Shown piece after piece: positions 5,720 through 24,814 of a stretch of 64,000 bases of DNA. Source of the DNA: Candidatus Omnitrophica bacterium UBA6215 (GTDB lineage: Bacteria; Omnitrophota; Gorgyraeia; Pluralincolimonadales; Pluralincolimonadaceae). The stretch covers positions 103,291 through 167,290 of the forward strand of contig DISH01000003.1 of the NCBI GenBank assembly GCA_002421665.1, written 5' to 3'. A program made the translations under genes and the position numbers. The stretch's first letter is position 1; each line of letters begins with the position of its first letter. The notes under the pieces are model-generated. The model made no database searches and was not told the DNA's origin. It saw only the letters and a program-made list of their open reading frames with translations.

Positions 5720-7309
5720 CTAGTTTTGCTGGGGTTTGAGGAGGCCGTTCCAGATCTCCTGCTGCTTATTCCAGTCCATCTCGGTGCTTACGTGGCGCAG
5801 CTTGTACTCGGGGATATCAAATAGCGCCTTATCGGCAGAGAGGAGTATCTCTTCCTGGATTTTTGGCGATATGAGCAACATATTCGCGATATGGCAGATC
5901 CTCGTATGGCTCATACCTAGCCAGCCAGCTATTTCCTTTATAGTGCATTTTCTTTCACGCGCGACCTGGTCAATCTGGTGAGCCAGGATAAGATTTTGAC
6001 GTATAAGTGGTTCCTTGCTTATCCCGGCTTGCTGGCGATGATAGGGGATATGCTTCAATTCGTTCAGTTTTAGCTCGAATTGGCGGCTTTTCTCGCCATT
6101 CTGGAGTACTATTTCGAGGACGCCATTAATCGCGTCGTAATGCGCGACCTTGGCGATTAATTTGAGTATTGGTATCCTTTCTTCTATGGTTAGCGCTTCC
6201 CACGCCTTGGCTTCAATTCGCGGATCTTTGCAGATTGTTCTTAAGAACTCCATAAACTTGTTCTCAATCGCCTGAGCCGAAATAAGGCGTGTTGGGCAGC
6301 TCTTATAGCCCCGTTTTTGGGCGTTCATACAGAGGTAGTAATGGTACCTGGTTGTACCTTTCCTGCTGTAGATGTAGTACATGGTGCTGTCGCAGGCCTT
6401 GCAGCGAAGGATGCCGTTTAATAAGCCTACGCTGGTTGCCACACCTGCGATTTTGCGCTCCCTACGGTTATTGGCCAGTATCTCTTGGGTTTTCTGGAAT
6501 ATCTCATCGGATATTATACGCTCCTGTTCGCCTTGATAAAGTGTTCCGGCATGGTTTACTTTTCCGGTATAGAAGGGGTTCTTTACTATGGACTGGACGC
6601 TGGTGCTCTTGAATTTCATACCACCGGATTTTTTGCCCTTGAAGGTCGTATAGCTCTTTGTGGTATAACCGTTCTCATTGAGAGCTGTTGCCACTGAAAG
6701 AAGGGACTTTTTCTCAAGGTAAAGGTCGAATATCTTTTTAACAAGCTCAGCTTCCTTCGGGTTTATAACCAGCCTTTTGTTTACTTTATCTATGTCATAG
6801 CCTAACGGCGGGCTGCCGCCGACCCATTTGCCTTTCCTCTTGGAGGCGGCCATCTTATCTCTAGTGCGCTCGCTTATTATCTCGCGCTCGAATTGGGCGA
6901 AGGAAAGAAGGATATTCAAGGTGAGCCTTCCCATTGAGGTATTGGTATTGAAGTGCTGGGTTACCGAAACAAAGGATATATTATTCTGCTCGAACGATTC
7001 CAATAACTGGCTAAAGTCCAATAGCGATCTCGACAGCCTATCAACCTTATAGACCACCACACAGTTAACCTTGCCTGCCTTGATATCGGCCATGAGCCTC
7101 TGAAGGGCAGGGCGCTCTGTATTGGCTCCTGTAAAACCAGGATCGTCATAACGCTCGGGAAGAGCTATCCAGCCTTCGGACTTCTGGCTGGCGATGTAGC
7201 TTTCTGCAGACTCGCGCTGGTTATCAAGGGAGGTAAATTCCTGGTCGAGTCCTTCGGTGGTAGAGACTCTCGTGTAAATAGCGCAGTTAACGTTCTTTTT
7301 TTCCATCAT
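5720..7309 (-). CDS. Large serine recombinase (phage integrase / TnpX-CcrB type) with resolvase catalytic domain, recombinase domain and zinc ribbon
   Basis: 529 aa. N-terminus AIYTRVSTTEGLDQ...DRLSRS with the catalytic Ser of the resolvase fold. C-terminal Cys cluster CKACDSTMYY...YYLCMNAQKRGYKSCPTR. Confidence 0.85.
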   Translation of the reverse strand: MMEKKNVNCAIYTRVSTTEGLDQEFTSLDNQRESAESYIASQKSEGWIALPERYDDPGFTGANTERPALQRLMADIKAGKVNCVVVYKVDRLSRSLLDFSQLLESFEQNNISFVSVTQHFNTNTSMGRLTLNILLSFAQFEREIISERTRDKMAASKRKGKWVGGSPPLGYDIDKVNKRLVINPKEAELVKKIFDLYLEKKSLLSVATALNENGYTTKSYTTFKGKKSGGMKFKSTSVQSIVKNPFYTGKVNHAGTLYQGEQERIISDEIFQKTQEILANNRRERKIAGVATSVGLLNGILRCKACDSTMYYIYSRKGTTRYHYYLCMNAQKRGYKSCPTRLISAQAIENKFMEFLRTICKDPRIEAKAWEALTIEERIPILKLIAKVAHYDAINGVLEIVLQNGEKSRQFELKLNELKHIPYHRQQAGISKEPLIRQNLILAHQIDQVARERKCTIKEIAGWLGMSHTRICHIANMLLISPKIQEEILLSADKALFDIPEYKLRHVSTEMDWNKQQEIWNGLLKPQQN

Positions 7310-7314
7310 GCCTC

Positions 7315-7758
7315 CTATAGGTTAAAGAACAGATACCCGTTCCAATGTGAGCCGGTTATCTTTTTGGCGATAGAGGATAAGGTCTTGTATATTTTCCCGT
7401 CATACTCGAAGCCCTTCTCAAGGACCTTCACCTGGTACTTGGCGTCTTTGTATTCCTTGGTTATTGCGGTTCCGGGGATGGGAAGCCGCTTGTCCTTGGC
7501 AGATATTGGATGGCTTACCGCCGGTTTATCCGGCCTCAGGATTTTATTGTTGATTGGATCATACTCCTCAATAAGCGCCTTTAGTTTATTCCTGACTTTG
7601 GGTGACAAATTGCCGTATTCTTGCTCCTGAAGTTTATAGGCAACCTTGCGCCAGAGGTAGAGCTTATGATTACTTACGGCATCTTCGCCGTAGAGTTCCT
7701 TATAGCGCCCAAGGAGTTCTTCTGCGGATGCGTTTTTAAGAGACATTATTTCGCTCAT
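7315..7758 (-). CDS. DUF2924 family protein (serine-recombinase-associated accessory protein)
   Basis: 147 aa. C-terminal pattern KYQVKVLEKGFEYDGKIYKTLSSIAKKITGSHWNGYLFF. Sits 5 nt upstream of, and co-oriented with, the serine recombinase, which is the usual arrangement for this family. Confidence 0.6.
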   Translation of the reverse strand: MSEIMSLKNASAEELLGRYKELYGEDAVSNHKLYLWRKVAYKLQEQEYGNLSPKVRNKLKALIEEYDPINNKILRPDKPAVSHPISAKDKRLPIPGTAITKEYKDAKYQVKVLEKGFEYDGKIYKTLSSIAKKITGSHWNGYLFFNL

Positions 7759-7893
7759 TTTGGCCTCCTTTCATCAGGACATATAAGGGCATACAATTTG
7801 AGAGATATCAAGGGAAATAGAGAGGTAGTTTTTCGATTGTGGGAGAGGAGGAAGAAGTAGTATAATTATCATGTACATTTGTAAGGAGATAGT

Positions 7894-8664
7894 ATGAATA
7901 AATGGATTAAGAAAAGTATAGAAATTGCAAATAGTCCTGGCTACTTAGATAAGCTGGGAAAGATTTATGTTATGAATATGAATCCCGAGCGCCCTCTCGA
8001 TGGCGGTATAGAACGCTCTATTCGCGAAGCCTTCAATAATCACGATACCAAGACGTTAATAAAATTGCTTCTGGAAGCAGAAGTTTTCCCCGTTAAGGAT
8101 TCTTATATAGGATTTATTAGAGCAGATGAAAAGGCAATCGATCAAAATCCCGAGACAGTAGAAAGAATAGGGGATCGTTTGTATGGATTAGGGTTAGAGA
8201 AACTTATTCAAGAAGCGACGCGCCCCAAGGAAACAAACAGGCAATTAGGAAGTTCCTTTCGCAGTTGGCTTCCTTCTTTGGTGTACCCGATACTGGAAGA
8301 GGATGAATTTACTAAAGCTAAAGGCATAGCTTTTTTAGCTGGGAGCGACAAGGCACTTAAAGATTACGCAGTTAAACATCTTGGTTGTAGGCTAACCAAG
8401 GGGATAGATGTTTTATTCAAAAAAGACGATATTTATGTAATTGGCGAAGCGAAATTTTTGACTACGCCTGGAGGCGAACAAGACCGCGGTTTTGACGATG
8501 CATCGAAGTTCATTAAAAGTAGATCTGGTAGGGCAAAGAGGATCGCTTTAATAGACGGTTATATTTGGCTTAAAACAAATAAAGGGCTTCATAGCAAAAT
8601 CGTGAAGAGTAATTTAGATATATTCAGCGCTTTGCTATTAAAAGACTTTATAGAAGTACTTTAG
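7894..8664 (+). CDS. Putative type II restriction endonuclease (PD-(D/E)XK fold)
   Basis: 256 aa. IDVLFKKDDIYVIGEAKF fits a D...(E)xK catalytic core. Convergent with the adjacent DNA methyltransferase and overlaps it by 17 nt. Confidence 0.5.
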   Translation: MNKWIKKSIEIANSPGYLDKLGKIYVMNMNPERPLDGGIERSIREAFNNHDTKTLIKLLLEAEVFPVKDSYIGFIRADEKAIDQNPETVERIGDRLYGLGLEKLIQEATRPKETNRQLGSSFRSWLPSLVYPILEEDEFTKAKGIAFLAGSDKALKDYAVKHLGCRLTKGIDVLFKKDDIYVIGEAKFLTTPGGEQDRGFDDASKFIKSRSGRAKRIALIDGYIWLKTNKGLHSKIVKSNLDIFSALLLKDFIEVL

Positions 8665-10447
8665 CCGTTTTATAAAAAGAAAAAGAAGGGGGGCTTTTAA
8701 ATAAGTCTTGTTTTTGATTTAAGTTGGATAATTTTTCTTCCGCAGTTTTTATTGCAGACTCATTAGAATCAATACCAATCCAACCTCGATTTAATTCTTC
8801 CGCCGCAATGAGAGTAGTGCCAGAACCGCAAAAACAATCTAAGATTAAATCTCCTTCTCTCGAAGAGCACAGGATAATCTGTTTTAACAATTCTTCATTT
8901 TTTTCTGTTGGATAAGTCTCACTAACAAATCCCGGATCTCTGAAATCCCAAATATCTTGAATCTTTTTTCCTTTATTCTCATCAGCATAGATTATTTTTC
9001 TTGGGTTATTAGTTTCTGACCATTCAATTAAACCTAATTTATCTAATCTGGTAAGCTCGGCAGGCGGATAGCGCCAGTGTCTTCCCTTAGGTGGCTTTAA
9101 TTCCTTCCAAGGCTGTCCTGTAGGGCCATTTTTAGTTTCCCCTTTTGCATGCAATGGAGTAGTAGCATAGCGTCTACCTTGCTTATCTATTTTTGGGAAT
9201 TGTTTTTCTATTTCTTCCTCAGAAAGCGTTAATCTATAATCAGACCAATACATAGGATCGTTTCCGTTGGGTTTAGATTTGGAGTAGTAATAAATAACAT
9301 CTTTTATGTTGCCATATGCTTTACGTTCAAAATTCTTAGGATTACATTTTATACGTGTTATGTCATTTCGGAAATTTTCTTCTCCAAACACTTCATCCAT
9401 AATAATTTTTATGTAATGACCTATTTTTTGATCTATATGAAGATATATACTGCCATCTTCGGATAATAATTCGCGGAGAAAAACAAGTCGTTTTCTTAGA
9501 AATTCTAGAAATTCTGTATTAATAAGCTTATCGCTGTAGGATTTTTCTTCTTCGTACCCTACAAATTCCTGTCCAGTGCCGAAGGGCGGATCTATATAAA
9601 TGAGATTAACCTTCCCTTTTATGTCTGGATCATCATAAAAATTTTTTAGTATTCCAAGATTATCACCTAGCATAAGTGCATTTTTTGTTTTAGGATTCGG
9701 ACCATACCTTTTAATAAATTTTAATTCAGCAGATGAAGTTTCAAATAAAATTTGTTCTCTTGTTTGCTTACCGGGATACAAAAGCTCACATCCACCTTTT
9801 GGCCTCTTTTCTTTTGGTATAGTATGATTAACTCGTTCTAGTGTTTCTTCTCGAATTGCAGATTTAATTACATCCGTAACTATTCCCTGAATTATCAATT
9901 CATCTGGTTTAACGAATATCGGCTGTAGCCTAGAATTTGCTGGCTGGAGTCTAATCTTACCTCTTTCCTTATAGAATTGTTTTAACGTTGCCTCTGTGTT
10001 GTTTATGAGAGCGACCACCTTCTGCCCGTTTTCAGCAGTTACCTGTTTTTTGACAAGAATAATATCTCCATCGTTAATATTTTCATCTATCATACTTTTT
10101 CCAACTACTTGTAGAGCGAAATAATTATTACCGGTTTTAATTTTATCCTGAGGAACTGCTATACTTTCTCTATCTTCGATTGCCTCAATTGGAGTACCGG
10201 CTGCTATTCGTCCCAAAAGAGGTATTTGGACTAGCTTCTGTTTCGCAAAGACATCAAGCGCTCGCGGTTGATTTTCTTCCTTTCTTAAATAGCCCATACT
10301 TTGTAAAGCTTGGACGTGATAGTGAGCTGTAGAAACAGAAGAGAGGTGAAGATGTTTTTTGATTTCTTCTAAGGAAGGGGCGAAATCATGTTTATCTATG
10401 TAGGTTCTTATAAAATCTAGTACTTGTTTTTGGCGTTTTGTAAGCAT
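8648..10447 (-). CDS. LexA-like repressor (wHTH + S24 autopeptidase) fused in frame to a beta-class N6A/N4C DNA methyltransferase
   Basis: 599 aa. Residues 1-~225 align with LexA: LTKRQKQVLDFI wHTH, IPLLGRIAAGTPIEA with an Ala-Gly cleavage site, VVGKSM catalytic Ser, TLKQF catalytic Lys. Residues ~230-599 carry methyltransferase motif IV IYIDPPFGTG followed by motif I LDCFCGSGTT (beta-class order). No stop codon lies between the two parts. Confidence 0.75.
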   Translation of the reverse strand: MLTKRQKQVLDFIRTYIDKHDFAPSLEEIKKHLHLSSVSTAHYHVQALQSMGYLRKEENQPRALDVFAKQKLVQIPLLGRIAAGTPIEAIEDRESIAVPQDKIKTGNNYFALQVVGKSMIDENINDGDIILVKKQVTAENGQKVVALINNTEATLKQFYKERGKIRLQPANSRLQPIFVKPDELIIQGIVTDVIKSAIREETLERVNHTIPKEKRPKGGCELLYPGKQTREQILFETSSAELKFIKRYGPNPKTKNALMLGDNLGILKNFYDDPDIKGKVNLIYIDPPFGTGQEFVGYEEEKSYSDKLINTEFLEFLRKRLVFLRELLSEDGSIYLHIDQKIGHYIKIIMDEVFGEENFRNDITRIKCNPKNFERKAYGNIKDVIYYYSKSKPNGNDPMYWSDYRLTLSEEEIEKQFPKIDKQGRRYATTPLHAKGETKNGPTGQPWKELKPPKGRHWRYPPAELTRLDKLGLIEWSETNNPRKIIYADENKGKKIQDIWDFRDPGFVSETYPTEKNEELLKQIILCSSREGDLILDCFCGSGTTLIAAEELNRGWIGIDSNESAIKTAEEKLSNLNQKQDLFKSPPSFSFYKTAKVLL

Positions 10448-10591
10448 TTTAGTTAATATATCTTCTCGCTTGACTTTCGATTTATTTTCGATTATACTAT
10501 ACTCGCGCTAGAAGTCAAGAAAATTCTTAGAAGTTCGTTTCTTGGCAGAGGTAACTGTAAACAACCATAGTTTTTAGGAAGGTAGATTGTT
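10448..10591. promoter_or_regulatory. Divergent promoter/operator region between the LexA-MTase and patatin genes
   Basis: Minus strand: TTGACT - 16/17 nt - TATAAT reads into lexA-MTase. Plus strand: TTGACT - 17 nt - TATACT reads into patatin. The region also has direct repeats TTTCGATT x2 and TAGAAGT x2, which are candidate operators. Confidence 0.45.
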
Positions 10592-11641
10592 ATGGATAAT
10601 TCAAGTAACGCTAGAAACGGCATAGGGTTAGCGCTATCAGGGGGTGGTAGCAGAGCTATAGCATTTCATTATGGTGTTCTTGAAGCGCTCCATGATTTTG
10701 AAATAGACAAAAAAATTAAAGTAGTGTCAGCTATCTCTGGAGGGGCCGTCATCGCTGCTTTATGGACTGTCCATTCTGATGATTGGGACTTATTTACAAA
10801 GAATATAGAGTTGGTATTGGACAAGGGGCTCGAAGGAACAATTTTTAAGAAACTAAAGCATCCGCTCGTTCTATTACAGCAGTTATTCCATTTAGGAATA
10901 GACTCTGGCTTACTTGCGGAAGCCTTGGATGAGCTAGTTTTGAATGGTAAAAAACTTAAAGAATTGCCAGAAAATCCAACCCTTATTTTAAACGCTACTG
11001 ATTTACGCACGGGTAGCAACTTTAAGTTTAGCAAATCAGTGTGTGGATCACATAAGGATGGCGGTAGCGACCTCTGTGACATGCGACTAAGCGATGCCGT
11101 AGCCTGTTCAGCCGCTTACCCGCTGTGTTTTAAGGCTAAGAAGATACGAATGGATAACGGTAAAGATGTATTTCTAACAGATGGCGGATCGTACGATTGT
11201 TTAGGGGCTAATGCATTAATGCCCGATAAAGATGAGGGAATATCAATATTGATCCAAAACTGTGAGACTATTATTACAAGCGATGCCTCGGCTCCATTTT
11301 TAGAAGACAGGAAATATTTAGGAAGGTCTATAGGTGATGCACTGTACTCGTCTTATTTAACCTGCGCTAAGAGGACACGCTCTTTGATATATAACAAAAT
11401 GTATCACCTTAAAGAAATCGGAGAGATACCCTATTTAGGTACAATCAAAATGGACAGCAAACACCCAGACGTAACCGCTAGTTGGAGTAAAGCAGATTTA
11501 GAGTTTGTAAATGGTTATAAGACTAATTTCAAGCCAGTTACTGGAAAGGCTGCCACCTATCTCAAGAAGCGCGGTAAAGAATCGGCAGAAATAATAGTAA
11601 AAAAATATTTACCACACTTAGTTACAAATAAACAGCTATAA
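10592..11641 (+). CDS. Patatin-like phospholipase
   Basis: 349 aa. Oxyanion motif LSGGGSRAIA, GxSxG nucleophile AISGGAV, catalytic Asp in LTDGGSYD. Confidence 0.85.
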   Translation: MDNSSNARNGIGLALSGGGSRAIAFHYGVLEALHDFEIDKKIKVVSAISGGAVIAALWTVHSDDWDLFTKNIELVLDKGLEGTIFKKLKHPLVLLQQLFHLGIDSGLLAEALDELVLNGKKLKELPENPTLILNATDLRTGSNFKFSKSVCGSHKDGGSDLCDMRLSDAVACSAAYPLCFKAKKIRMDNGKDVFLTDGGSYDCLGANALMPDKDEGISILIQNCETIITSDASAPFLEDRKYLGRSIGDALYSSYLTCAKRTRSLIYNKMYHLKEIGEIPYLGTIKMDSKHPDVTASWSKADLEFVNGYKTNFKPVTGKAATYLKKRGKESAEIIVKKYLPHLVTNKQL

Positions 11642-11654
11642 GGAGGAAAATAAA

Positions 11655-12737
11655 ATGGCTAACAAGGCGCAGGAGATTCTAATACCTGGTGAGGGTGTAT
11701 TTCGTACAGTATTTCTTAATGTCGGCCAAGGCGATTCTACTCTTTTAATCATTCCTGATGGAACAGGACATAAATACGTATTAACTGATTCCCATCAGGA
11801 TGATAAAAAGGGAAGCATTGATATAATTAAATTACTAGAAGATCTTCTTGAGGGACAGAAGAGAAAGCTAGATATCTACATCAATACTCATCCCCACAAA
11901 GATCATCTTGGAAAAGTCAAAGAAATGTATGAAAATAAAAAAATTGGCATAAAACAAGTTTGGCATTCCGGGCATAAACCTGGCGGTGATCACAAGGATG
12001 CATATAAAGACCTAGAATACGTTATGGAAAAGGTTGGAAAAGAAAATGTTTTTCAACTTAAAGGTAGCCGTGAAGATAACAAGTTAGATGATAAAGAAGT
12101 TAAGCTGGGAGATATAAGCTTTAATATTTTAGCACCCGCCGATTATGTTACCGATGAAATTGAAGATGAAAAACCTGAAGATAGATACCATAGGATTCAT
12201 GAGCAATGCGGAGTGATTCGATTTAAGTATGGCAAAAAAGAAAAGCAAATATTATTAACCGGCGATGCAGATTACGATGCCTGGACAAAGCATATCACCG
12301 ATTATCATAAAGACAGGCTTCCTGCACACGTCTTGAGCGCGGTTCATCATGGTTCAAATACTTTTTTTTGGAAAGGCGATCCGAAAGACGAAGATCCATA
12401 TACTGAACATTTAGATAAAATTGATCCTAAGCTTATAGTTGTTAGTGCTCCAGCGCGAAAAGATAGCCCACACGGCCATCCCGATAAGGAAGCGATGGGT
12501 CTGTATGAGGACAAGGTCGGTAAAGATAACCTCAAGCATCTAGGGGACAAGCCAAAATGCATAATAGTTGATATAGATAGTGAAGGAAATATTGATATCC
12601 AAGAAGATTATGAGCTAATTAAAGAATACCCCTCAGGGGACGACAATAAAGATGAAGATAAAGAAAATGGTGGGCAAAGTGCATCTGTGATATATAGCTC
12701 AAAGAAACAACCTTCTAAACCGTGGCTTAACGGTTAA
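11655..12737 (+). CDS. Metallo-beta-lactamase fold hydrolase, ComEC-C-terminal-like
   Basis: 360 aa. VGQGDSTLLI ... INTHPHKDHLG (HxHxDH) ... LLTGDAD motifs. Strong AAGGAGGA RBS. Starts 13 nt after the patatin stop. Confidence 0.75.
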   Translation: MANKAQEILIPGEGVFRTVFLNVGQGDSTLLIIPDGTGHKYVLTDSHQDDKKGSIDIIKLLEDLLEGQKRKLDIYINTHPHKDHLGKVKEMYENKKIGIKQVWHSGHKPGGDHKDAYKDLEYVMEKVGKENVFQLKGSREDNKLDDKEVKLGDISFNILAPADYVTDEIEDEKPEDRYHRIHEQCGVIRFKYGKKEKQILLTGDADYDAWTKHITDYHKDRLPAHVLSAVHHGSNTFFWKGDPKDEDPYTEHLDKIDPKLIVVSAPARKDSPHGHPDKEAMGLYEDKVGKDNLKHLGDKPKCIIVDIDSEGNIDIQEDYELIKEYPSGDDNKDEDKENGGQSASVIYSSKKQPSKPWLNG

Positions 12738-12738
12738 A

Positions 12739-13518
12739 ATGTGGCTGTCAGAAAATGATAAAAAATGGATAGAAACCAATTATCCAAATCTTCAAATCGT
12801 AGAAAAACAAGGGACACAAGAAGTAAGAGGACCTCTTAGTTTTTGTATGAGTTACGATAAGCATGATCAGAGTCGTGTTATCTTAACGAATAAAAATTAT
12901 AAAAGGGGTATTGTAATATGCGATAAATATGATATCGAAATTGTTTTCACAAGGGCGATTTATCTGCCAATGGTGCGTGAGACGGGGGGCCGGTTTGAAG
13001 AAATAAGACAGCAAAAGAAAATATCAGATATTCGAGATTTGCATATCTGTAAAAGTAAATGGGATGGTAAAGATGGGTGGGCATGCATGTGCTCAAGACT
13101 TGAAGAGCAAATTAGACTACCACCCGGAAGCTCGATAGATATTTTCTTTTATGAATTATTAATCCCATTTTTTTATGCACAAAGTTATTTTTCGGACTAT
13201 GGTAAATATCCGTGGGGCACCTATAGCCATGGAGCATTTGGAATAATTGAGAGCTACATGCAATTAAGGGGAGGCAAAGGAAAAGAATTTGCTAAGGCTT
13301 GTGTAACTGAACTTATGAAAGAAAAAAAGGGTAAAGGGGGCGAAGAAGCTAAAAAATGTATAGAGTTATTAAAAAGAAAGAAAATAAGAAGACACTGGCC
13401 TTGTATATGTGATAATCCAACCGAAAGATTTTATATATGTCATCCCAAAATATTTGCGGGATTGAGGAGTTTGAAAAAAGACATTAGAAAATATAATATG
13501 AAAAAATATTTGATTTAA
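12739..13518 (+). CDS. Hypothetical Cys-rich protein, third gene of the patatin/MBL cassette
   Basis: 259 aa. Starts 1 nt after the MBL stop. Cys motifs WACMCSRL, HWPCICDNP, YICHP. No confident family assignment. Confidence 0.6.
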   Translation: MWLSENDKKWIETNYPNLQIVEKQGTQEVRGPLSFCMSYDKHDQSRVILTNKNYKRGIVICDKYDIEIVFTRAIYLPMVRETGGRFEEIRQQKKISDIRDLHICKSKWDGKDGWACMCSRLEEQIRLPPGSSIDIFFYELLIPFFYAQSYFSDYGKYPWGTYSHGAFGIIESYMQLRGGKGKEFAKACVTELMKEKKGKGGEEAKKCIELLKRKKIRRHWPCICDNPTERFYICHPKIFAGLRSLKKDIRKYNMKKYLI

Positions 13519-13657
13519 TTCGAGTTAATAGATAATCAAAGAAAGATAACAATGTCAAAGATTATCGACCCCAACAAGATTAGAGTAGGCGATGTCATCC
13601 TTGTGGCCAGTGGTACAAGAGTTACCATCAACATTAAACAAAAACTCGGATAATAAA

Positions 13658-14878
13658 ATGGCAGACAATAACAAAGTTTATTCCCAGTCACGGTTAGGCT
13701 CATTTGACGATTGCAGGTTAAAATATAAGTATCATTATATCGACCATATCGAATCAGACATCAAAACCATCGAAGCCTTTCGCGGAAGCATGGTTCACAA
13801 GGTTCTCGAGGAGCTGTATAAACTCGTGAAGGCCGGTACAGTCAAGCCTCTTGAGTGGGCGGTTGGACTATATGACGATACTTGGAAGAAGAATTATCAT
13901 ACAGGAATAAAGATCGTTAAGAAAGGGGTTACCTTAGATGGTTATTATCAAAAGGGCAAAGAGGCCGTTATCAACTACTACGAGTGCTATAGCCCTTTTG
14001 ACCAGGCCAAAGTAGTCGATACCGAACGCAAGATCAGATTTACATTACGAAACGGCACGGAAGAATATGCTTTTTTAGGGATACTCGATAGGCTTGACTG
14101 GAATGATAAGGCCCAGATATTTGAAATTCACGATTACAAAACCACGTCTTCCCTCATGACCCAACAAGAGGCGGATACGGATTGGCAGCTTGGCCTCTAT
14201 CATATAGCTCTCAAGGAAAAATGGCCTGATATTAAGGATGTCAAACTCATATGGCATTCACTCCTATTTAATAAAGAGGTTATTTCATCAAGGACAGAGG
14301 TTCAGCTTGATTTGCTTCAGAAGGAAGTTATCGATGAAATAAAGAAGGTCGAAGAATGTACGGAATTTCCTCCAAAGAAAAGTGCTCTTTGCGATTGGTG
14401 CGAATATCAAGCGATGTGTCCCGCTTGGAAACATCCTAAGGCCATGGAAGAGCTCTCAGTTAACGAATACAAGAAAGACCCGGGCGTAATGCTGGTTTCA
14501 AAGTATGCAGATTTCGAAAATAAGAAAAAAGAGTTTAAAGAAAAAGTCGTTGAAATAGAACTTGAACAGAGTAAGCTTGAAGAAGCTGCGATAGAGTTTG
14601 CCGAGAAGAATAAAATCGCAATAATAGACGGCCCTGAAAATCAGCTTAAGGTCGATATAAAAGAAGAGCTAAGGGCCCCTACCAAAACAGAAGACGCGCA
14701 GTCATGGCAAGGCCTTAGAGATGCCCTTATAAAGGAAGGCAAATATAACGAAGTATCTACCGTCAATAACAACATGCTCAACTACCGCATACGCATATGG
14801 CCCAAGGAGTTTTTGAAAAAGATAGAAGCATTCCTTAAAAGACAGATAACAAAGTCAGTCAAGCTGATTAAAAAATAA
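13658..14878 (+). CDS. PD-(D/E)XK nuclease, Cas4/AddB-like with C-terminal 4-Cys cluster
   Basis: ORF 13592..14878, with the ATG at 13658 (MADNNKVYSQSRLGSF) preferred. Core motifs LDRLDW...EIHDYKTT (D..E.K) and C-terminal CDWCEYQAMCP plus an upstream Cys, a RecB/Cas4-like Fe-S arrangement. Confidence 0.65.
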   Translation: MADNNKVYSQSRLGSFDDCRLKYKYHYIDHIESDIKTIEAFRGSMVHKVLEELYKLVKAGTVKPLEWAVGLYDDTWKKNYHTGIKIVKKGVTLDGYYQKGKEAVINYYECYSPFDQAKVVDTERKIRFTLRNGTEEYAFLGILDRLDWNDKAQIFEIHDYKTTSSLMTQQEADTDWQLGLYHIALKEKWPDIKDVKLIWHSLLFNKEVISSRTEVQLDLLQKEVIDEIKKVEECTEFPPKKSALCDWCEYQAMCPAWKHPKAMEELSVNEYKKDPGVMLVSKYADFENKKKEFKEKVVEIELEQSKLEEAAIEFAEKNKIAIIDGPENQLKVDIKEELRAPTKTEDAQSWQGLRDALIKEGKYNEVSTVNNNMLNYRIRIWPKEFLKKIEAFLKRQITKSVKLIKK

Positions 14879-15101: not shown

Positions 15102-16367
15102 ATGGAAATCCGCAGAGTCCCTGTTTCAAAAATTAATCCCGCCTCGTATAATCCTCGCATTGACCTCAAGCCAGAAGATTCCGAATATCAAAAGCTGAAA
15201 GAAAGTATCGAAACTTTCGGATACGTAGATCCGATTGTTTGGAATGAATTGACTGGCAATCTTATTGGCGGCCACCAGCGTTTCAAAATCCTAGTTAGCC
15301 AAGAAATGAGGGAGATCGAGGTTAGTGTAGTTAGGCTATCTCTTGAAAAGGAAAAGGCTTTAAATCTCGCCTTAAATAAAGTTGTTGGCTCCTGGGATTA
15401 CGAAAAGCTATCTGCGCTTTTGGATGAATTATCAAAAATCCCCGATTTTGATATCAGCATTACCGGTTTTGGCGATTCAGAAATAAGTCAAATCTTCGAC
15501 CGTTATAGTAGCCAAAAAAATGCGGATGACTTTGATTTTGACAAAACCTTAAAAAATATCACCGTGCCAGTAACAAAACGGGGCGACATCATTAAACTTG
15601 GGCCTCATTTTGTTATGTGCGGAGATTCTGCCTGCGGAAACGATTTAAACGAGCTAATGCGGAATGAAAAGATCGATCTTGTGCATACAGATCCACCATA
15701 CGGTTGTTTATATCTTGCGCAAAATCGGCCTGATCTCGAATCCAGACCGAAAAAATCAAAGCGCTGGGAAAAGTTGTACAAGGACGACCTTAATGAAAAG
15801 GATTATGAGAAGTGGATAAAAAACGTTTTAAATAATATAAGATGTTATCTAAAGGAAGGTGCCTCGGCATATATTTGGAACGGGCATGCAAAGTTTTATT
15901 TTGTCCATCAGGTTTTAAAGGAATTGGGTTTCCACGTTTCAACCGTGATTACTTGGGCTAAACCTACCTTTGCCATTTCATACGGCAATTTTAACCAGCA
16001 GACGGAATTTTGCATTTTTTCGTGGCTTAAAAACGGTCCACACAAATGGTATGGTCCCACGAATGAAACTAATTTGTGGGAAATCAGCAGAGATAAAGCC
16101 TCTGAATTGATTCATCCGACGCAAAAAAGCGTTCAAATTCCATCGAGAGCGATCAGGAATAGCTCGATAAAAGGCGATATTATATTTGACGGGTTCCTCG
16201 GAAGCGGGTCTAGTTTAATTGCAGCAGAGAGTCTTGGGCGATGCTGTTATGGGATGGAAATAGAGCCGCGTTATGTCGACGCTATCGTCAAGCGCTACAT
16301 AGATTTTGTCGGCGCAGACAAAATTTCATCCGATATCCTTAACAAATATCGGAAGGAGGAGGCCTAA
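15102..16367 (+). CDS. ParB-like nuclease domain fused to a beta-class DNA methyltransferase (phage-type)
   Basis: 421 aa. N-terminal ParB-N-like region KINPASYNPR ... GGHQR. Methyltransferase motif IV VHTDPPYG and motif I FDGFLGSGSS. Confidence 0.75.
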   Translation: MEIRRVPVSKINPASYNPRIDLKPEDSEYQKLKESIETFGYVDPIVWNELTGNLIGGHQRFKILVSQEMREIEVSVVRLSLEKEKALNLALNKVVGSWDYEKLSALLDELSKIPDFDISITGFGDSEISQIFDRYSSQKNADDFDFDKTLKNITVPVTKRGDIIKLGPHFVMCGDSACGNDLNELMRNEKIDLVHTDPPYGCLYLAQNRPDLESRPKKSKRWEKLYKDDLNEKDYEKWIKNVLNNIRCYLKEGASAYIWNGHAKFYFVHQVLKELGFHVSTVITWAKPTFAISYGNFNQQTEFCIFSWLKNGPHKWYGPTNETNLWEISRDKASELIHPTQKSVQIPSRAIRNSSIKGDIIFDGFLGSGSSLIAAESLGRCCYGMEIEPRYVDAIVKRYIDFVGADKISSDILNKYRKEEA

Positions 16368-16368
16368 C

Positions 16369-17043
16369 ATGGAATCATCTAAATCCGATAACTCGAATAA
16401 ACCGGCAGTCCAACTGCTCAAGGAGATTGATTCATGCCAGACCGATCCAAGCTTGTTTGATAAGCCGGATCGCCAAAAATGCGTTGAACTCTTGATTTTG
16501 GAAGGTTACAGCTATGCACACATGGCACAGGTACTGAAGTGTTCCGAGAAGACCATTTCCCGAGACATGAAGGAGATTCGTGAGCGAAATGCGATCTCGC
16601 CTAATGTGCAATTCGCCAAAGAATTCATAGGCGATGTGTTCAGGAAGGCGATGAGCCAGCACGATCATCTCGTCCGCTTATCCCGCATGAAGGAGACTCC
16701 CGTAGCCGAGAGAATCCAGGCCACGTTTATGGCATGGAGGATATTGAAGGAACTCACTGAAAGATGCCAGTCTTTAGGTTATTTGCCTTTGCAGCCGCAG
16801 AAGGTCATTGGCGACATCTTTCACCATGTAGAAGAGTCCTCCGAGGCGTCATTCGAAGACATCCGAAAGACCATAAACGAGATCGAGACCATAACAAAAG
16901 AAACAGGAGGCGAGACACCGCAGTTTGCATCTGAGATAACTCAGTTGAAAGCACGACTTGAGAAGGCCCAGCTCGAATACGAGGCAAACAAACTTCTGGA
17001 AGCTCAATTCAAGAAGGAAAAAGACGATGGACCCGAAAATTAA
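16369..17043 (+). CDS. Terminase small subunit-like HTH protein
   Basis: ORF 16306..17043, with the ATG at 16369 preferred because it follows RBS GGAAGGAGGAGG and does not overlap the upstream gene. HTH segment YSYAHMAQVLKCSEKTISRDMKEIR. Position immediately upstream of TerL. Confidence 0.55.
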   Translation: MESSKSDNSNKPAVQLLKEIDSCQTDPSLFDKPDRQKCVELLILEGYSYAHMAQVLKCSEKTISRDMKEIRERNAISPNVQFAKEFIGDVFRKAMSQHDHLVRLSRMKETPVAERIQATFMAWRILKELTERCQSLGYLPLQPQKVIGDIFHHVEESSEASFEDIRKTINEIETITKETGGETPQFASEITQLKARLEKAQLEYEANKLLEAQFKKEKDDGPEN

Positions 17044-18634
17044 TGAAGGAGTATCCTCGGCAAGAAGGACGGCAGGGAAAGGCTCCATTTATACCTTTGC
17101 CGAGATATATATGTCGGACCACCTAAAATACAAGCCTTCACAGGTGCACAAGTATATATATGCTAAGCTTCAAAAGGCTTCAAATGTCAGAGGTACAAAA
17201 CTTGCCATTGCAGCGCCGAGAAATTTTGGAAAATCAACCCTTATCACGTTAATCTACATCCTCTACAGCATATGTTACGACAAGGAGAAATTCATAGTCG
17301 TAATCTCCAACACCGCCTATCAGTCGATGAGGATGCTCGATAACATTAAATCGGAGATTCTTAATAATGAAAAACTAAGAAAAGACTTTCCTCATGTATT
17401 TGGAGACAGCAAAATAAAACTTACTCGTTGGCAGCAAAATTGCATTATCACATGTAACGGTGTACAGGTATTGGTCTTGGGTTCCGGTCAGCAAATTCGG
17501 GGTCTTAGATATGGCATTAATAGGCCCACGCTTATTATTGCAGACGACCTTGAAAATACAAAATCCGTTCACTCGAGCAATATGCGCGAAAAGCTTAAGG
17601 AGTGGTTTTACAACTCGGTCTTAAAGGCTGGAGCCGAGGATACCAACGTTATCTTTATCGGTAATCTGTTCCACCCTTATTCTCTTTTAAGCGAATGTAT
17701 CGAGAATGCCACATGGACGAATGAGGTATATTCGGCGATAGAGACTTGGCCGACCAGGATGGATCTCTGGAACAAATTCGAGAATATATTGCGTGGAAGG
17801 GATAAAAGCGAGGGAGCCGTAGGAAGGGAGGCCGCACGAAAATTCTACGCGGGAAACGCCCAAGCTATGGATGCCGGGGCTAAGCTTCTTTGGCCGGAGC
17901 GCGACAACCTCTGCGATCTTATGGAAAAGTATTATGAGAATGAATTTGGTTTCATGGCGGAAATGCAAAATAAGCCGCGCAACCCAAAGGATTGTCCGTT
18001 TAATGTGGACGAATTCAGTTATTGGAGTGACAAATATAAATCTGCCAGGGAATTATTGCTAGCATCAGGTGATGGCGTTGATTTCTTCGGGGCATGCGAT
18101 CCCAGCATGGGAAAGAGTGATGACTCAGATAATTCTGCCATTATAGTTTTGGCGCGTGACAAGGACGGAGTTCTATATATCGTGGAAGCCGATATTAAAC
18201 GTAGGCAGCCCAACGAGATCATAGATGATATAATTACCTATCATAGAGCCTACAATTTTCAGTTATTTGCAGTTGAGTCCAATAATTTTCAAGAACTTAT
18301 GATTAAACAGCTTGAAGATAAAGCGAGAGCTATGAAGCAATATATACCAATCGAAAGAATAAACAACCGTTCAAACAAGGAAGCCCGTATAAAGTCGCTC
18401 CAATCGTTATTTCATAGAGGTACCGTATGTTTTAACAGAAACGACCTAGACCTTATCAATGAATGCGTGTATTTTCCAAAAGGGAAAAGTGATGACGGTC
18501 TAGATGCTCTTGAAATGGCCATTCATATTGCGCAGGAGCCAGGGGAGGTTAAAGTCTTGATTTGCGGAAGGGATAGAGATGATGATAATTGGCTAAGTGA
18601 TTATCAAAAGAATCTTGGCTGGCCAAAATTATAG
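17027..18634 (+). CDS. Phage terminase large subunit (ATPase + RNaseH-like nuclease)
   Basis: ORF 16958..18634, with the ATG at 17027 (MDPKINEG) and its RBS AAGGAAAAAG preferred. Walker A-like AIAAPRNFGKST. C-terminal nuclease-domain acidic residues FFGACDPSMGKSDDSDNSAIIVLARD. Confidence 0.8.
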   Translation: MDPKINEGVSSARRTAGKGSIYTFAEIYMSDHLKYKPSQVHKYIYAKLQKASNVRGTKLAIAAPRNFGKSTLITLIYILYSICYDKEKFIVVISNTAYQSMRMLDNIKSEILNNEKLRKDFPHVFGDSKIKLTRWQQNCIITCNGVQVLVLGSGQQIRGLRYGINRPTLIIADDLENTKSVHSSNMREKLKEWFYNSVLKAGAEDTNVIFIGNLFHPYSLLSECIENATWTNEVYSAIETWPTRMDLWNKFENILRGRDKSEGAVGREAARKFYAGNAQAMDAGAKLLWPERDNLCDLMEKYYENEFGFMAEMQNKPRNPKDCPFNVDEFSYWSDKYKSARELLLASGDGVDFFGACDPSMGKSDDSDNSAIIVLARDKDGVLYIVEADIKRRQPNEIIDDIITYHRAYNFQLFAVESNNFQELMIKQLEDKARAMKQYIPIERINNRSNKEARIKSLQSLFHRGTVCFNRNDLDLINECVYFPKGKSDDGLDALEMAIHIAQEPGEVKVLICGRDRDDDNWLSDYQKNLGWPKL

Positions 18635-23953: not shown

Positions 23954-24814
23954 ATGGATAAAAAGAAAGATATCCCTTACGAAAAAGTCATAAAAGACTT
24001 AACTAGCATAACCGATAAATTTAAAGAAGTTAGTTGTTTTAAGAAAAAAGAGATAGAAGATATCGAACAGACGCGCAGACAACTAGATATTGTAAAGGAT
24101 TACTGGAAGGCAAATCCAAATCCACCTTCATCGTTAGCATATGCCACGCTTACCTCGGCGGCAAGCTATATTCATGAATTCAAAAGCTATGTCAACCACA
24201 TTGGTCCTTCAGAATTTACGGGTTCGCTTTTGGGAACCGCAATTAGTTCCGGCGATTCGATAGTGGCAACTGGCATGACCCTTTCGTATATCGCTCCAAC
24301 TAATGATGAGGCCGTTAAAAAAAAGTTAGAAGTTAAATTTGTTGAAATAAAAGAAGCTCCCAGAAGAAAAAACCGCAGAAAGGAAATCAAAAGATATCTT
24401 AAAAAATTATCCCCTCATTTGGCTTCTGCCTATGAAGGAGCATGGGAAAATCTCGAAACAAATTTTAGCGATTCGGAAAGAGGGGCTGCTTTTCTTATGA
24501 GAGAAGTGGTGTCGCAAGTTTTAGATATTTTAGCTCCAAAAGAGGCAATTAAAACATCAGATTTTATTCCTGACCCAACAGCAAAAGACGGTGTTACTCG
24601 AAAACATAGGTTAGAATACATAGCAACCCATAAGGCAAAAGGCAGTTTTAGCAAGGAATTATTAGATAGAAGTATTCAGGGTTTCTTGGATACTTACGAA
24701 GGTTTAAACGATGCCCATAAGAGAACTTTTCTTGATAAATCAAAAATAGAAAGTTTTTTATTTCAAGCCGATGATTTATTGCATACGCTTTTTAATTCGG
24801 TAATAATCGATTAA
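23954..24814 (+). CDS. Hypothetical protein
   Basis: 286-aa ORF with RBS-like AGAGG upstream. No recognisable family. Sits immediately upstream of the HNH gene. Confidence 0.5.
   Translation: MDKKKDIPYEKVIKDLTSITDKFKEVSCFKKKEIEDIEQTRRQLDIVKDYWKANPNPPSSLAYATLTSAASYIHEFKSYVNHIGPSEFTGSLLGTAISSGDSIVATGMTLSYIAPTNDEAVKKKLEVKFVEIKEAPRRKNRRKEIKRYLKKLSPHLASAYEGAWENLETNFSDSERGAAFLMREVVSQVLDILAPKEAIKTSDFIPDPTAKDGVTRKHRLEYIATHKAKGSFSKELLDRSIQGFLDTYEGLNDAHKRTFLDKSKIESFLFQADDLLHTLFNSVIID

Follow-up and report, generated by a model that had tools for sequence, protein, structure and literature searches.

The DNA examined here, referred to throughout as the window, is a 64,000-nucleotide stretch of contig DISH01000003.1 (assembly GCA_002421665.1) from Candidatus Omnitrophica bacterium UBA6215, and its positions 7894–10447 hold a two-gene Type II restriction-modification (RM) cassette in which the methyltransferase (M) is joined to a LexA repressor. 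The fusion gene (8648–10447, minus strand) is a single open reading frame (ORF) encoding a 599-aa LexA-S24-methyltransferase protein, and the gene that faces it (7894–8664, plus strand) encodes a 256-aa Type II endonuclease (R) of the Tsp45I family, which matches PF06300 over its full length at 8e-74 and the PADLOC REase_II model at 1.5e-51. The two genes are convergent and their 3′ ends overlap by 17 nt (8648–8664), in agreement with an initial annotation of this DNA, which had proposed a convergent endonuclease overlapping the 3′ end of the fusion gene.

The N-terminal part of the fusion protein is a LexA. A winged helix-turn-helix (wHTH) DNA-binding domain (aa 2–63; 10259–10444, minus strand; PF01726, LexA_DNA_bind, 4e-18) is followed by a Peptidase_S24 catalytic and dimerisation domain (aa 76–190; 9878–10222, minus strand; PF00717, 2e-30), the stretch from aa 2 to 195 scores 186 bits against the NCBIfam lexA equivalog TIGR00498 (cutoff 111), and the top PDB match of the LexA part is LexA 3k2z (9e-35). 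In alignment with E. coli LexA, residues A83-G84, S118 and K156 of the fusion fall on A84-G85, S119 and K156. The predicted autocleavage site, between ..LLGRIAA and GTPIEA.., is thus encoded by the Ala83-Gly84 codons at 10196–10201, and the catalytic dyad by the Ser118 (10094–10096) and Lys156 (9980–9982) codons, all on the minus strand; the dyad is invariant in the alignments, with the serine in the context G-x-S-M and the lysine in the context T-L-K across a 30-member fusion alignment. What follows is a methyltransferase module of the beta class of N6A/N4C enzymes (aa 219–578; 8714–9793, minus strand; PADLOC MTase_II, 2e-140). It matches N6_N4_Mtase (PF01555) at aa 280–571 with 5e-48, covering model positions 1–221 of 221, and its motif IV DPPF (aa 286–289; 9581–9592, minus strand) precedes its motif I FCGSGTT (aa 539–545; 8813–8833, minus strand), which is the beta-class order. 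Since homology to non-fused methyltransferases starts only at aa ~219–222, the junction can be placed at aa ~196–218 (nt ~9793–9860), close to nt 9770, where it had first been put. An AlphaFold2 (AF2) model of the protein (mean pLDDT 68.5, pTM 0.52) is consistent with three modules, the wHTH being modelled at pLDDT 86–90; the model as a whole is too weak for fold searches and is left unused in what follows.

Metagenome assemblies always invite the suspicion that a protein of this kind is an artefact of assembly or gene calling, a frameshift having joined a lexA gene to a neighbouring methyltransferase gene, and this prior expectation is all that speaks for such an explanation. Exactly this 599-aa protein, with its neighbours unchanged, is encoded by 10 contigs of separate ENA and JGI assemblies, an uninterrupted LexA-methyltransferase ORF occurs in more than 50 clusters at 57–100% identity, and the architecture recurs with several methyltransferase families; the independent contigs and the clusters together rule the artefact out, and we put its probability at practically nil. 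The annotation's reading of the N-terminus as LexA, of the remainder as a beta-class methyltransferase and of the two as fused in frame is therefore borne out: the Pfam check recovers both LexA domains and the whole N6_N4_Mtase model, and the autocleavage residues are intact within one ORF. Judged from its sequence, the 599-aa protein is a complete LexA of the Patescibacteria type and a Type II methyltransferase in one chain.

The nearest relatives of the cassette lie in two metagenome-assembled genomes (MAGs) of Omnitrophota (L001 and L002, 85%) and in a Paceibacterota MAG (L003, 63%). In these three loci and in L084 a Tsp45I-like R gene again converges on the LexA-M gene, and every fused methyltransferase of the Tsp45I-paired family has an adjacent R. 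A Tsp45I-like R also adjoins 64 of 77 non-fused methyltransferase relatives, mostly in a co-directional R-to-M tandem and in 11 cases convergently. These non-fused Tsp45I-family systems (L004–L080) are spread over Chloroflexota, Patescibacteria, Bacteroidota, Planctomycetota, Desulfobacterota and even archaeal MAGs. Directly 5′ of R, both L001 (7747–8016, minus strand, 89 aa) and L002 (5193–5417, minus strand, 74 aa) carry an XRE-HTH gene resembling those of C proteins, and the remaining flanking genes of the cassette differ among the window, L001 and L002. Because the L001/L002 cassette is kept while its other flanks change, the mobile unit would be C-R plus LexA-M. The site of Tsp45I itself, GTSAC, occurs in host DNA at an observed/expected ratio of 0.96, a value that is uninformative on active restriction.

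The closest non-fused methyltransferases have an HTH_17 N-terminus in place of LexA, which suggests that the N-terminus of these enzymes is a swappable slot for regulatory DNA-binding domains. As far as the gene arrangements indicate, the slot is used where M needs a promoter of its own.

The M promoter and its predicted operator

A promoter scan of 7600–10700, run blind, returned as its best promoter-like site the M promoter, TTGACT-16-TATAAT (11/12; 10491–10518, minus strand), and as its second best a divergent promoter, TTGACT-17-TATACT (10/12; 10470–10498, plus strand). The two overlap, and at the same place is the predicted LexA operator, TGACTTTCGATTTATTTTCGATTAT (10471–10495, plus strand), whose core TTCG-N7-TTCG is at 10476–10490. 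The operator begins directly after the −10 element of the M promoter, over the expected transcription start, and it occupies the 17-nt spacer of the divergent promoter, which faces a patatin-led array of genes on the plus strand. The window, L001, L002 and L083 share the sequence TATAATCGAAAAT[A/G]AATCGAAAGTCAAG right after the M −10 element, while their −35/−10 spacers vary, and the outward-facing inverted promoter cassette is likewise conserved in the latter three.

Across the clade, a direct repeat TTCG-N7-TTCG with an 11-bp period is found at or beside the promoter. Allowing one mismatch at most, it is present in the upstream regions of 31 of 42 fused genes and of 27 of 31 standalone lexA genes, as against 139 of 1460 control windows drawn from the same loci. 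The extended consensus is TGACTTTCG[G/A]TTTA[T/C]TTTCG[G/A]TAT, which the window site matches exactly. Because the repeat stands before ordinary lexA genes, which classically autoregulate, TTCG-N7-TTCG is to all appearances this clade's LexA box. In Alphaproteobacteria, LexA boxes that are direct repeats of the form GTTC-N7-GTTC, with an identical 11-bp register, are well documented (PMC4951493), and for Patescibacteria a direct-repeat LexA box is cited (PMC7739468). No independent SOS gene preceded by the box was found in the collected loci, where the sole strict box with an ORF behind it belonged to another lexA-methyltransferase gene. A search by eye of 10448–10591 and 7759–7893 for known boxes (the Gram-positive GAAC-N4-GTTC and other palindromes) gave none that fits. 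The palindrome ATGTACAT before R was considered as an operator and rejected, as it is not conserved in relatives.

The R genes present a different picture. Only 3 of 25 R upstream regions contain the box at up to one mismatch, which is the background level, and within the Tsp45I family, the window and the C-R promoters included, none has it upstream of R. With the box at the promoters of fusion genes and at background level at those of R, LexA control would be specific to M. This bears on the proposal of the initial annotation that RM expression is wired to RecA-induced self-cleavage: the part concerning M gains from the predicted LexA box abutting the M −10 element, and direct control of R finds no support. 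The suggested release of the restriction gene through direct LexA control, in particular, is not supported, the R promoters having no box.

By sequence, catalytic residues and predicted operator, then, the N-terminal part of the fusion belongs to the LexA family. The fusion shares with LexA (TIGR00498) the equivalog threshold, the Ala-Gly, Ser and Lys residues and the TTCG-N7-TTCG box of standalone lexA genes, but it has about 400 aa of methyltransferase appended and its gene belongs to an RM cassette carried by a mobile low-GC island. No role in an SOS regulon is apparent within the window, where no exact match other than its own box at 10471–10495 occurs in the 64 kb, and it would not seem to be a standalone SOS regulator.

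Two further features of these promoters deserve mention. A 10-mer resembling a DnaA box, TGTGGATAAC (reverse complement GTTATCCACA), is found directly 5′ of the LexA box and −10 element in more than 30 promoters; examples among the lexA and lexA-methyltransferase promoters of L084–L157 are L108:1700–1795, L109:60–150 and L125:4900–5000, and the window M promoter has CTTGACTT at the corresponding position. The 10-mer could be a −35-like element specific to the Candidate Phyla Radiation (CPR) or a genuine DnaA site. In L091 (1966–2096), two oppositely oriented LexA boxes stand upstream of the fusion gene, one within the promoter and one downstream of it, an arrangement that suggests tandem or cooperative binding in some members.

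LexA-methyltransferase fusions as a class

The search of databases for further LexA-methyltransferase architectures that the initial annotation had called for makes it clear that the window fusion is not a one-off and that it is part of a large modular class. A metagenome scan with the LexA part alone as the query gave 80 loci, in which LexA ORFs of ~200 aa and LexA ORFs of 430–890 aa each make up about half, and all 30 of the long ORFs that were tested consist of LexA_DNA_bind, Peptidase_S24 and a DNA methyltransferase. Most of these methyltransferases are N6_N4 enzymes, the others being D12/Dam, C-5 cytosine and gamma-class Eco57I/N6_Mtase/TaqI_C enzymes. A HMMER search with the window LexA module, run exhaustively over 1.84 billion representatives at 50% identity, gave the same answer: long fusions, defined as proteins of 350 aa or more that begin with LexA, account for 35 of the 50 closest representatives and number 43 among the top 150. 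In each of the 43 the two LexA domains are joined to a DNA methyltransferase (30 N6_N4, 7 gamma, 5 D12 and 2 C5), and no other type of fusion partner occurs among them. The nearest standalone relatives of the module are Patescibacteria LexA proteins of ~200 aa, at 58–66% identity. In a neighbour-joining (NJ) tree of the LexA modules, a rough tree without support values that is used for this point only, members of the different methyltransferase families interleave, with a few standalone LexAs nested in between; from this pattern, the tree suggests that the LexA module has been shuffled repeatedly among methyltransferases.

The residues of autocleavage have been retained throughout. Ala-Gly, Ser and Lys are invariant in all 43 long representatives of the HMMER search and in 30 of 30 close fusion relatives, they are kept in the 43 fused and 35 standalone locus proteins that were aligned with E. 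coli LexA, and their invariance extends to identities as low as about 45%. The autocleavage residues of the fusions are, by this pattern, under selection.

These results are best viewed against the regulatory methyltransferases already described, of the M.SsoII, M.Ecl18kI, M.EcoRII and M.MspI type, in which an N-terminal HTH binds and represses the enzyme's own M promoter (PMC12707154; PMC2760811). The two kinds have in common a DNA-binding domain at the N-terminus of M and an operator, predicted in our case, at the M promoter, but the known enzymes use an HTH of ~70 aa without a sensor, whereas the fusions carry a LexA of ~200 aa with S24 and a cleavage site. In the SsoII and Ecl18kI systems, moreover, the operator lies between divergent R and M promoters and binding indirectly activates R, whereas here R and M are convergent, their promoters are about 2.6 kb apart, and R is without a box in the window and in 22 of 25 other loci. 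The class thus adds an unprecedented sensor module to a known kind of RM control borne by the methyltransferase.

It might be argued that the LexA module is nothing but a dimeric DNA-binding domain that sets the level of M or the timing of establishment, its cleavage being without a physiological role. The operator at the M promoter would be expected of such a plain autorepressor, close relatives have the non-cleavable HTH_17 in the same position, and fusions of methyltransferase and repressor are an established mode of control (PMC12707154). The invariance of Ala-Gly, Ser and Lys in every fusion examined is hard to reconcile with it, as dimerisation alone needs none of these residues, and we regard this explanation as unlikely.

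The genomic company of the fusions is as consistent as their architecture. Among the 31 fused loci that have a downstream ORF, the 3′ neighbour of the fusion gene is in 28 a convergent gene of 190–350 aa that abuts or overlaps it (gap −22 to +11 nt). Endonuclease matches were obtained for 11 of 19 convergent neighbours scanned and fall into eight Pfam families: BglII, TaqI (two), R.Pab1, MvaI/BcnI, BsaWI (two), EcoRV, Bsp6I (two) and EndoVII/His-Me. Once Tsp45I is added, the partner endonucleases of fusions span at least nine families. Several of the pairs presumably also fit in the class of the cognate enzymes, EcoRV being found with D12, Bsp6I with C5, and BglII and MvaI with N4/N6 beta methyltransferases. 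A separate arrangement is seen in L085 (653–2935), where a LexA-N6_N4 fusion is followed, 4 nt on, by a co-directional D12-class methyltransferase, with no convergent endonuclease. The locus could represent either an orphan pair or a system with two methyltransferases.

From all this we tentatively propose, at a little below an even chance, that the fusions form a widespread and modular class of SOS-sensing Type II RM systems, mainly of Patescibacteria/CPR and Omnitrophota, in which a portable, RecA-cleavable LexA would serve as a damage sensor independent of the host, raising methylation and probably, by convergent transcription, lowering restriction at any time when the chromosome is cut or under repair; the same estimate covers the proposition that at least four methyltransferase families have each acquired the LexA module together with its direct-repeat operator, in repeated events, and have been set tail-to-tail with at least nine endonuclease families. 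In public databases the fusions go by the names 'transcriptional repressor LexA' or 'adenine-specific DNA-methyltransferase'. A LexA-methyltransferase fusion is described nowhere in the literature searched, which was full text, sparse for subscription journals, and did not extend to PMID 28618189, and LexA-linked methyltransferases are absent from the 2014 and 2025 reviews of RM regulation. Within that coverage, the annotation's remark that the architecture had not been described is upheld.

A proposed damage input to Type II modification

How such a protein might work can be envisioned in a few steps. The fusion would dimerise through S24 and its wHTH would bind TTCG-N7-TTCG beside its own −10 element, so that M represses its own synthesis. 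Damage to the DNA, including cuts by the partner endonuclease where its sites are unmethylated, would give rise to RecA-ssDNA filaments, and these in turn would stimulate self-cleavage at Ala83-Gly84, parting the DNA-binding domain from the S24-methyltransferase. The M promoter would then be derepressed and more methyltransferase would be made. Stronger M transcription would probably also interfere with the expression of R, since the two genes are tail-to-tail with overlapping ends and there is no clear terminator between them. The net effect would be a protective feedback coupled to SOS, a Type II analogue of restriction alleviation, and because host RecA is all that it needs, the circuit would travel with the cassette. 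It is established that Type II restriction of under-methylated chromosomes induces SOS (PMC3874152; PMC2685091). That M represses its own gene, that RecA-stimulated cleavage lifts the repression after damage, and that the outcome is an SOS-coupled alleviation of Type II restriction is the reading we favour on the sequence evidence, with chances that we put slightly above even; within it, what we infer is that the protein binds DNA, that its cleavage depends on RecA, that the methyltransferase stays active once cleaved, and which way the physiological effect goes.

Several considerations weigh against this reading. The cleaved S24-methyltransferase could be degraded instead of remaining active, which would reverse the predicted outcome. 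Fragments of E. coli LexA are substrates of ClpXP and Lon, and the predicted new C-terminus of the fusion, ..RIAA, resembles the ..RVAA of E. coli LexA. Raised methylation under SOS might in addition shield the DNA of invading phages, at a cost to defence. M may not be the only target of the operator, given that it lies inside the divergent promoter. Finally, the window cassette is without the C gene that L001 and L002 carry (none was found 5′ of R, at 7759–7893), and the promoter scan of 7600–10700 gave no recognisable sigma-70 promoter before R. With the C gene lost and no sigma-70-like promoter detected, the R of the window may be poorly expressed or differently controlled. As concerns the RM systems controlled by C proteins such as C.PvuII, C.AhdI and C.Esp1396I, it is L001 and L002 that resemble them, in the layout of their C-R operons; here the LexA module is fused to M and is not a free activator of R.

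The fate of the cleaved protein is also what separates protective feedback from its opposite, an SOS-triggered suicide or addiction system in which, on DNA damage or the activation of RecA by phage, cleavage destabilises or inactivates the methyltransferase, the endonuclease prevails and the cell dies, as in abortive infection or post-segregational killing. Under this model too the cleavage residues would be invariant, and R genes without a LexA box would let R persist while M is hit; the ..RIAA end, moreover, resembles the end of cleaved E. coli LexA that ClpX recognises. The killing of under-methylated hosts by RM systems is a known effect (PMC3874152). Cleavage would, however, derepress the M promoter as well and so bring fresh protein, the methylation already present would persist while replication is stalled, and only the 83-aa DNA-binding domain is taken off, the methyltransferase module being left whole. 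We consider the suicide model improbable.

The alleviation of restriction by the favoured circuit would have a parallel in Type I systems, where HsdR is degraded by ClpXP or, in Type IC, assembly fails (PMC12707154; PMC4231737). The likeness lies in a proposed temporary relief of the chromosome from restriction after damage or entry into a new host, but Type I alleviation is post-translational and acts on the R subunit, whereas the proposed control would be transcriptional and act on M through RecA-stimulated autoproteolysis. No Type II equivalent of damage-induced restriction alleviation was found in the RM reviews examined.

Few control modes are understood that keep a host safe from its own Type II RM system during damage, repair synthesis or entry into a new cell, namely C proteins, HTH-methyltransferases and antisense RNA, and to our knowledge damage-responsive alleviation is limited to Type I enzymes. 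If the proposal is right, a LexA carried on the methyltransferase connects Type II systems directly to RecA by an input that moves along with them, and the circuit would be their first for 'restriction alleviation' to act through transcription. As the architecture dominates the nearest relatives of the LexA module and occurs in the small genomes of CPR bacteria, the fusions may rank among the main ways of controlling RM across a broad section of the bacterial tree. Because NCBI annotates them as 'transcriptional repressor LexA', reconstructions of SOS regulons, phylogenies of LexA and counts of RM systems can all be misled in these phyla.

The island around the cassette

The RM pair lies inside a low-GC stretch (35–45% as against ~53%) of about 5.4–29.8 kb, beside tRNA-Val and tRNA-Asp genes. 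As for the host, the enolase encoded in the window is 100% identical to that of an Omnitrophota MAG, and Omnitrophota sequences also supply its next matches. At one end of this island are a large serine recombinase (5720–7309) and a DUF2924 protein (7315–7758), and the rest of it is a ~19-kb array of genes that all run on the plus strand, with a patatin, a metallo-beta-lactamase-fold protein, an E2-like protein, a Cas4-like nuclease, a ParB-methyltransferase, a large terminase, a lipase and several nucleases. No att repeat of 11 nt or more was found between the island ends, as would be expected of a recombinase of the serine type. Possible identities for the island are a prophage remnant, a satellite and an integrative defence island.

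This setting gives rise to one more explanation, akin to the island-induction switch suggested in the initial annotation and compatible with the circuit favoured above, namely that in this window the fusion is a master repressor of the CI type that silences the plus-strand array through the divergent promoter until SOS. The filling of that promoter's 17-nt spacer by the operator speaks for it, as does the conservation of the outward-facing cassette in L001, L002 and L083, and so does the order of the genes, in which a recombinase and a repressor are followed by the operator and a long array with the large terminase (16958–18634, plus strand) and the ParB_N-N6_N4 methyltransferase (15102–16367, plus strand). 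The resemblance to S24 phage repressors such as lambda CI is evident, as these too are repressors of the RecA-cleavable type (a property predicted here) that are transcribed away from a long operon across an intervening operator, with a recombinase adjacent; but the wHTH here is of the LexA and not the XRE type, it is fused to an enzyme, and the fusions are linked to endonucleases and not to phage modules. The divergent neighbours in L001 and L002, moreover, are unrelated genes, the consistent partner of the fusion being R, or C plus R, alone; no capsid or tail genes were recognised in the island; and the fused form was not found on IMG/VR viral contigs, where only non-fused relatives of the methyltransferase occur. 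Judged from relatives in other contexts, the primary association of the fusions is with RM, and we think it decidedly unlikely that control of the island is the role of the one in the window.

Other genes of the array merit a brief description. A 286-aa protein (23954–24814) has a predicted pPIWI-associating nuclease domain (PF18165, 2e-19) and a weak match to the PADLOC Aga_Nuclease model; no Argonaute gene was recognised near it. The first genes past the divergent promoter (10592–13518, plus strand) encode the patatin-like phospholipase, the metallo-beta-lactamase-fold protein, which has weak LmuA and PDC-M48B matches, and the E2-like protein, whose 259 aa match PADLOC 'E2' models at 1e-28. 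They are followed by the Cas4-like PD-(D/E)XK nuclease (13592–14878, plus strand), and these four genes have the look of a candidate defence cluster, which may be SOS-inducible.

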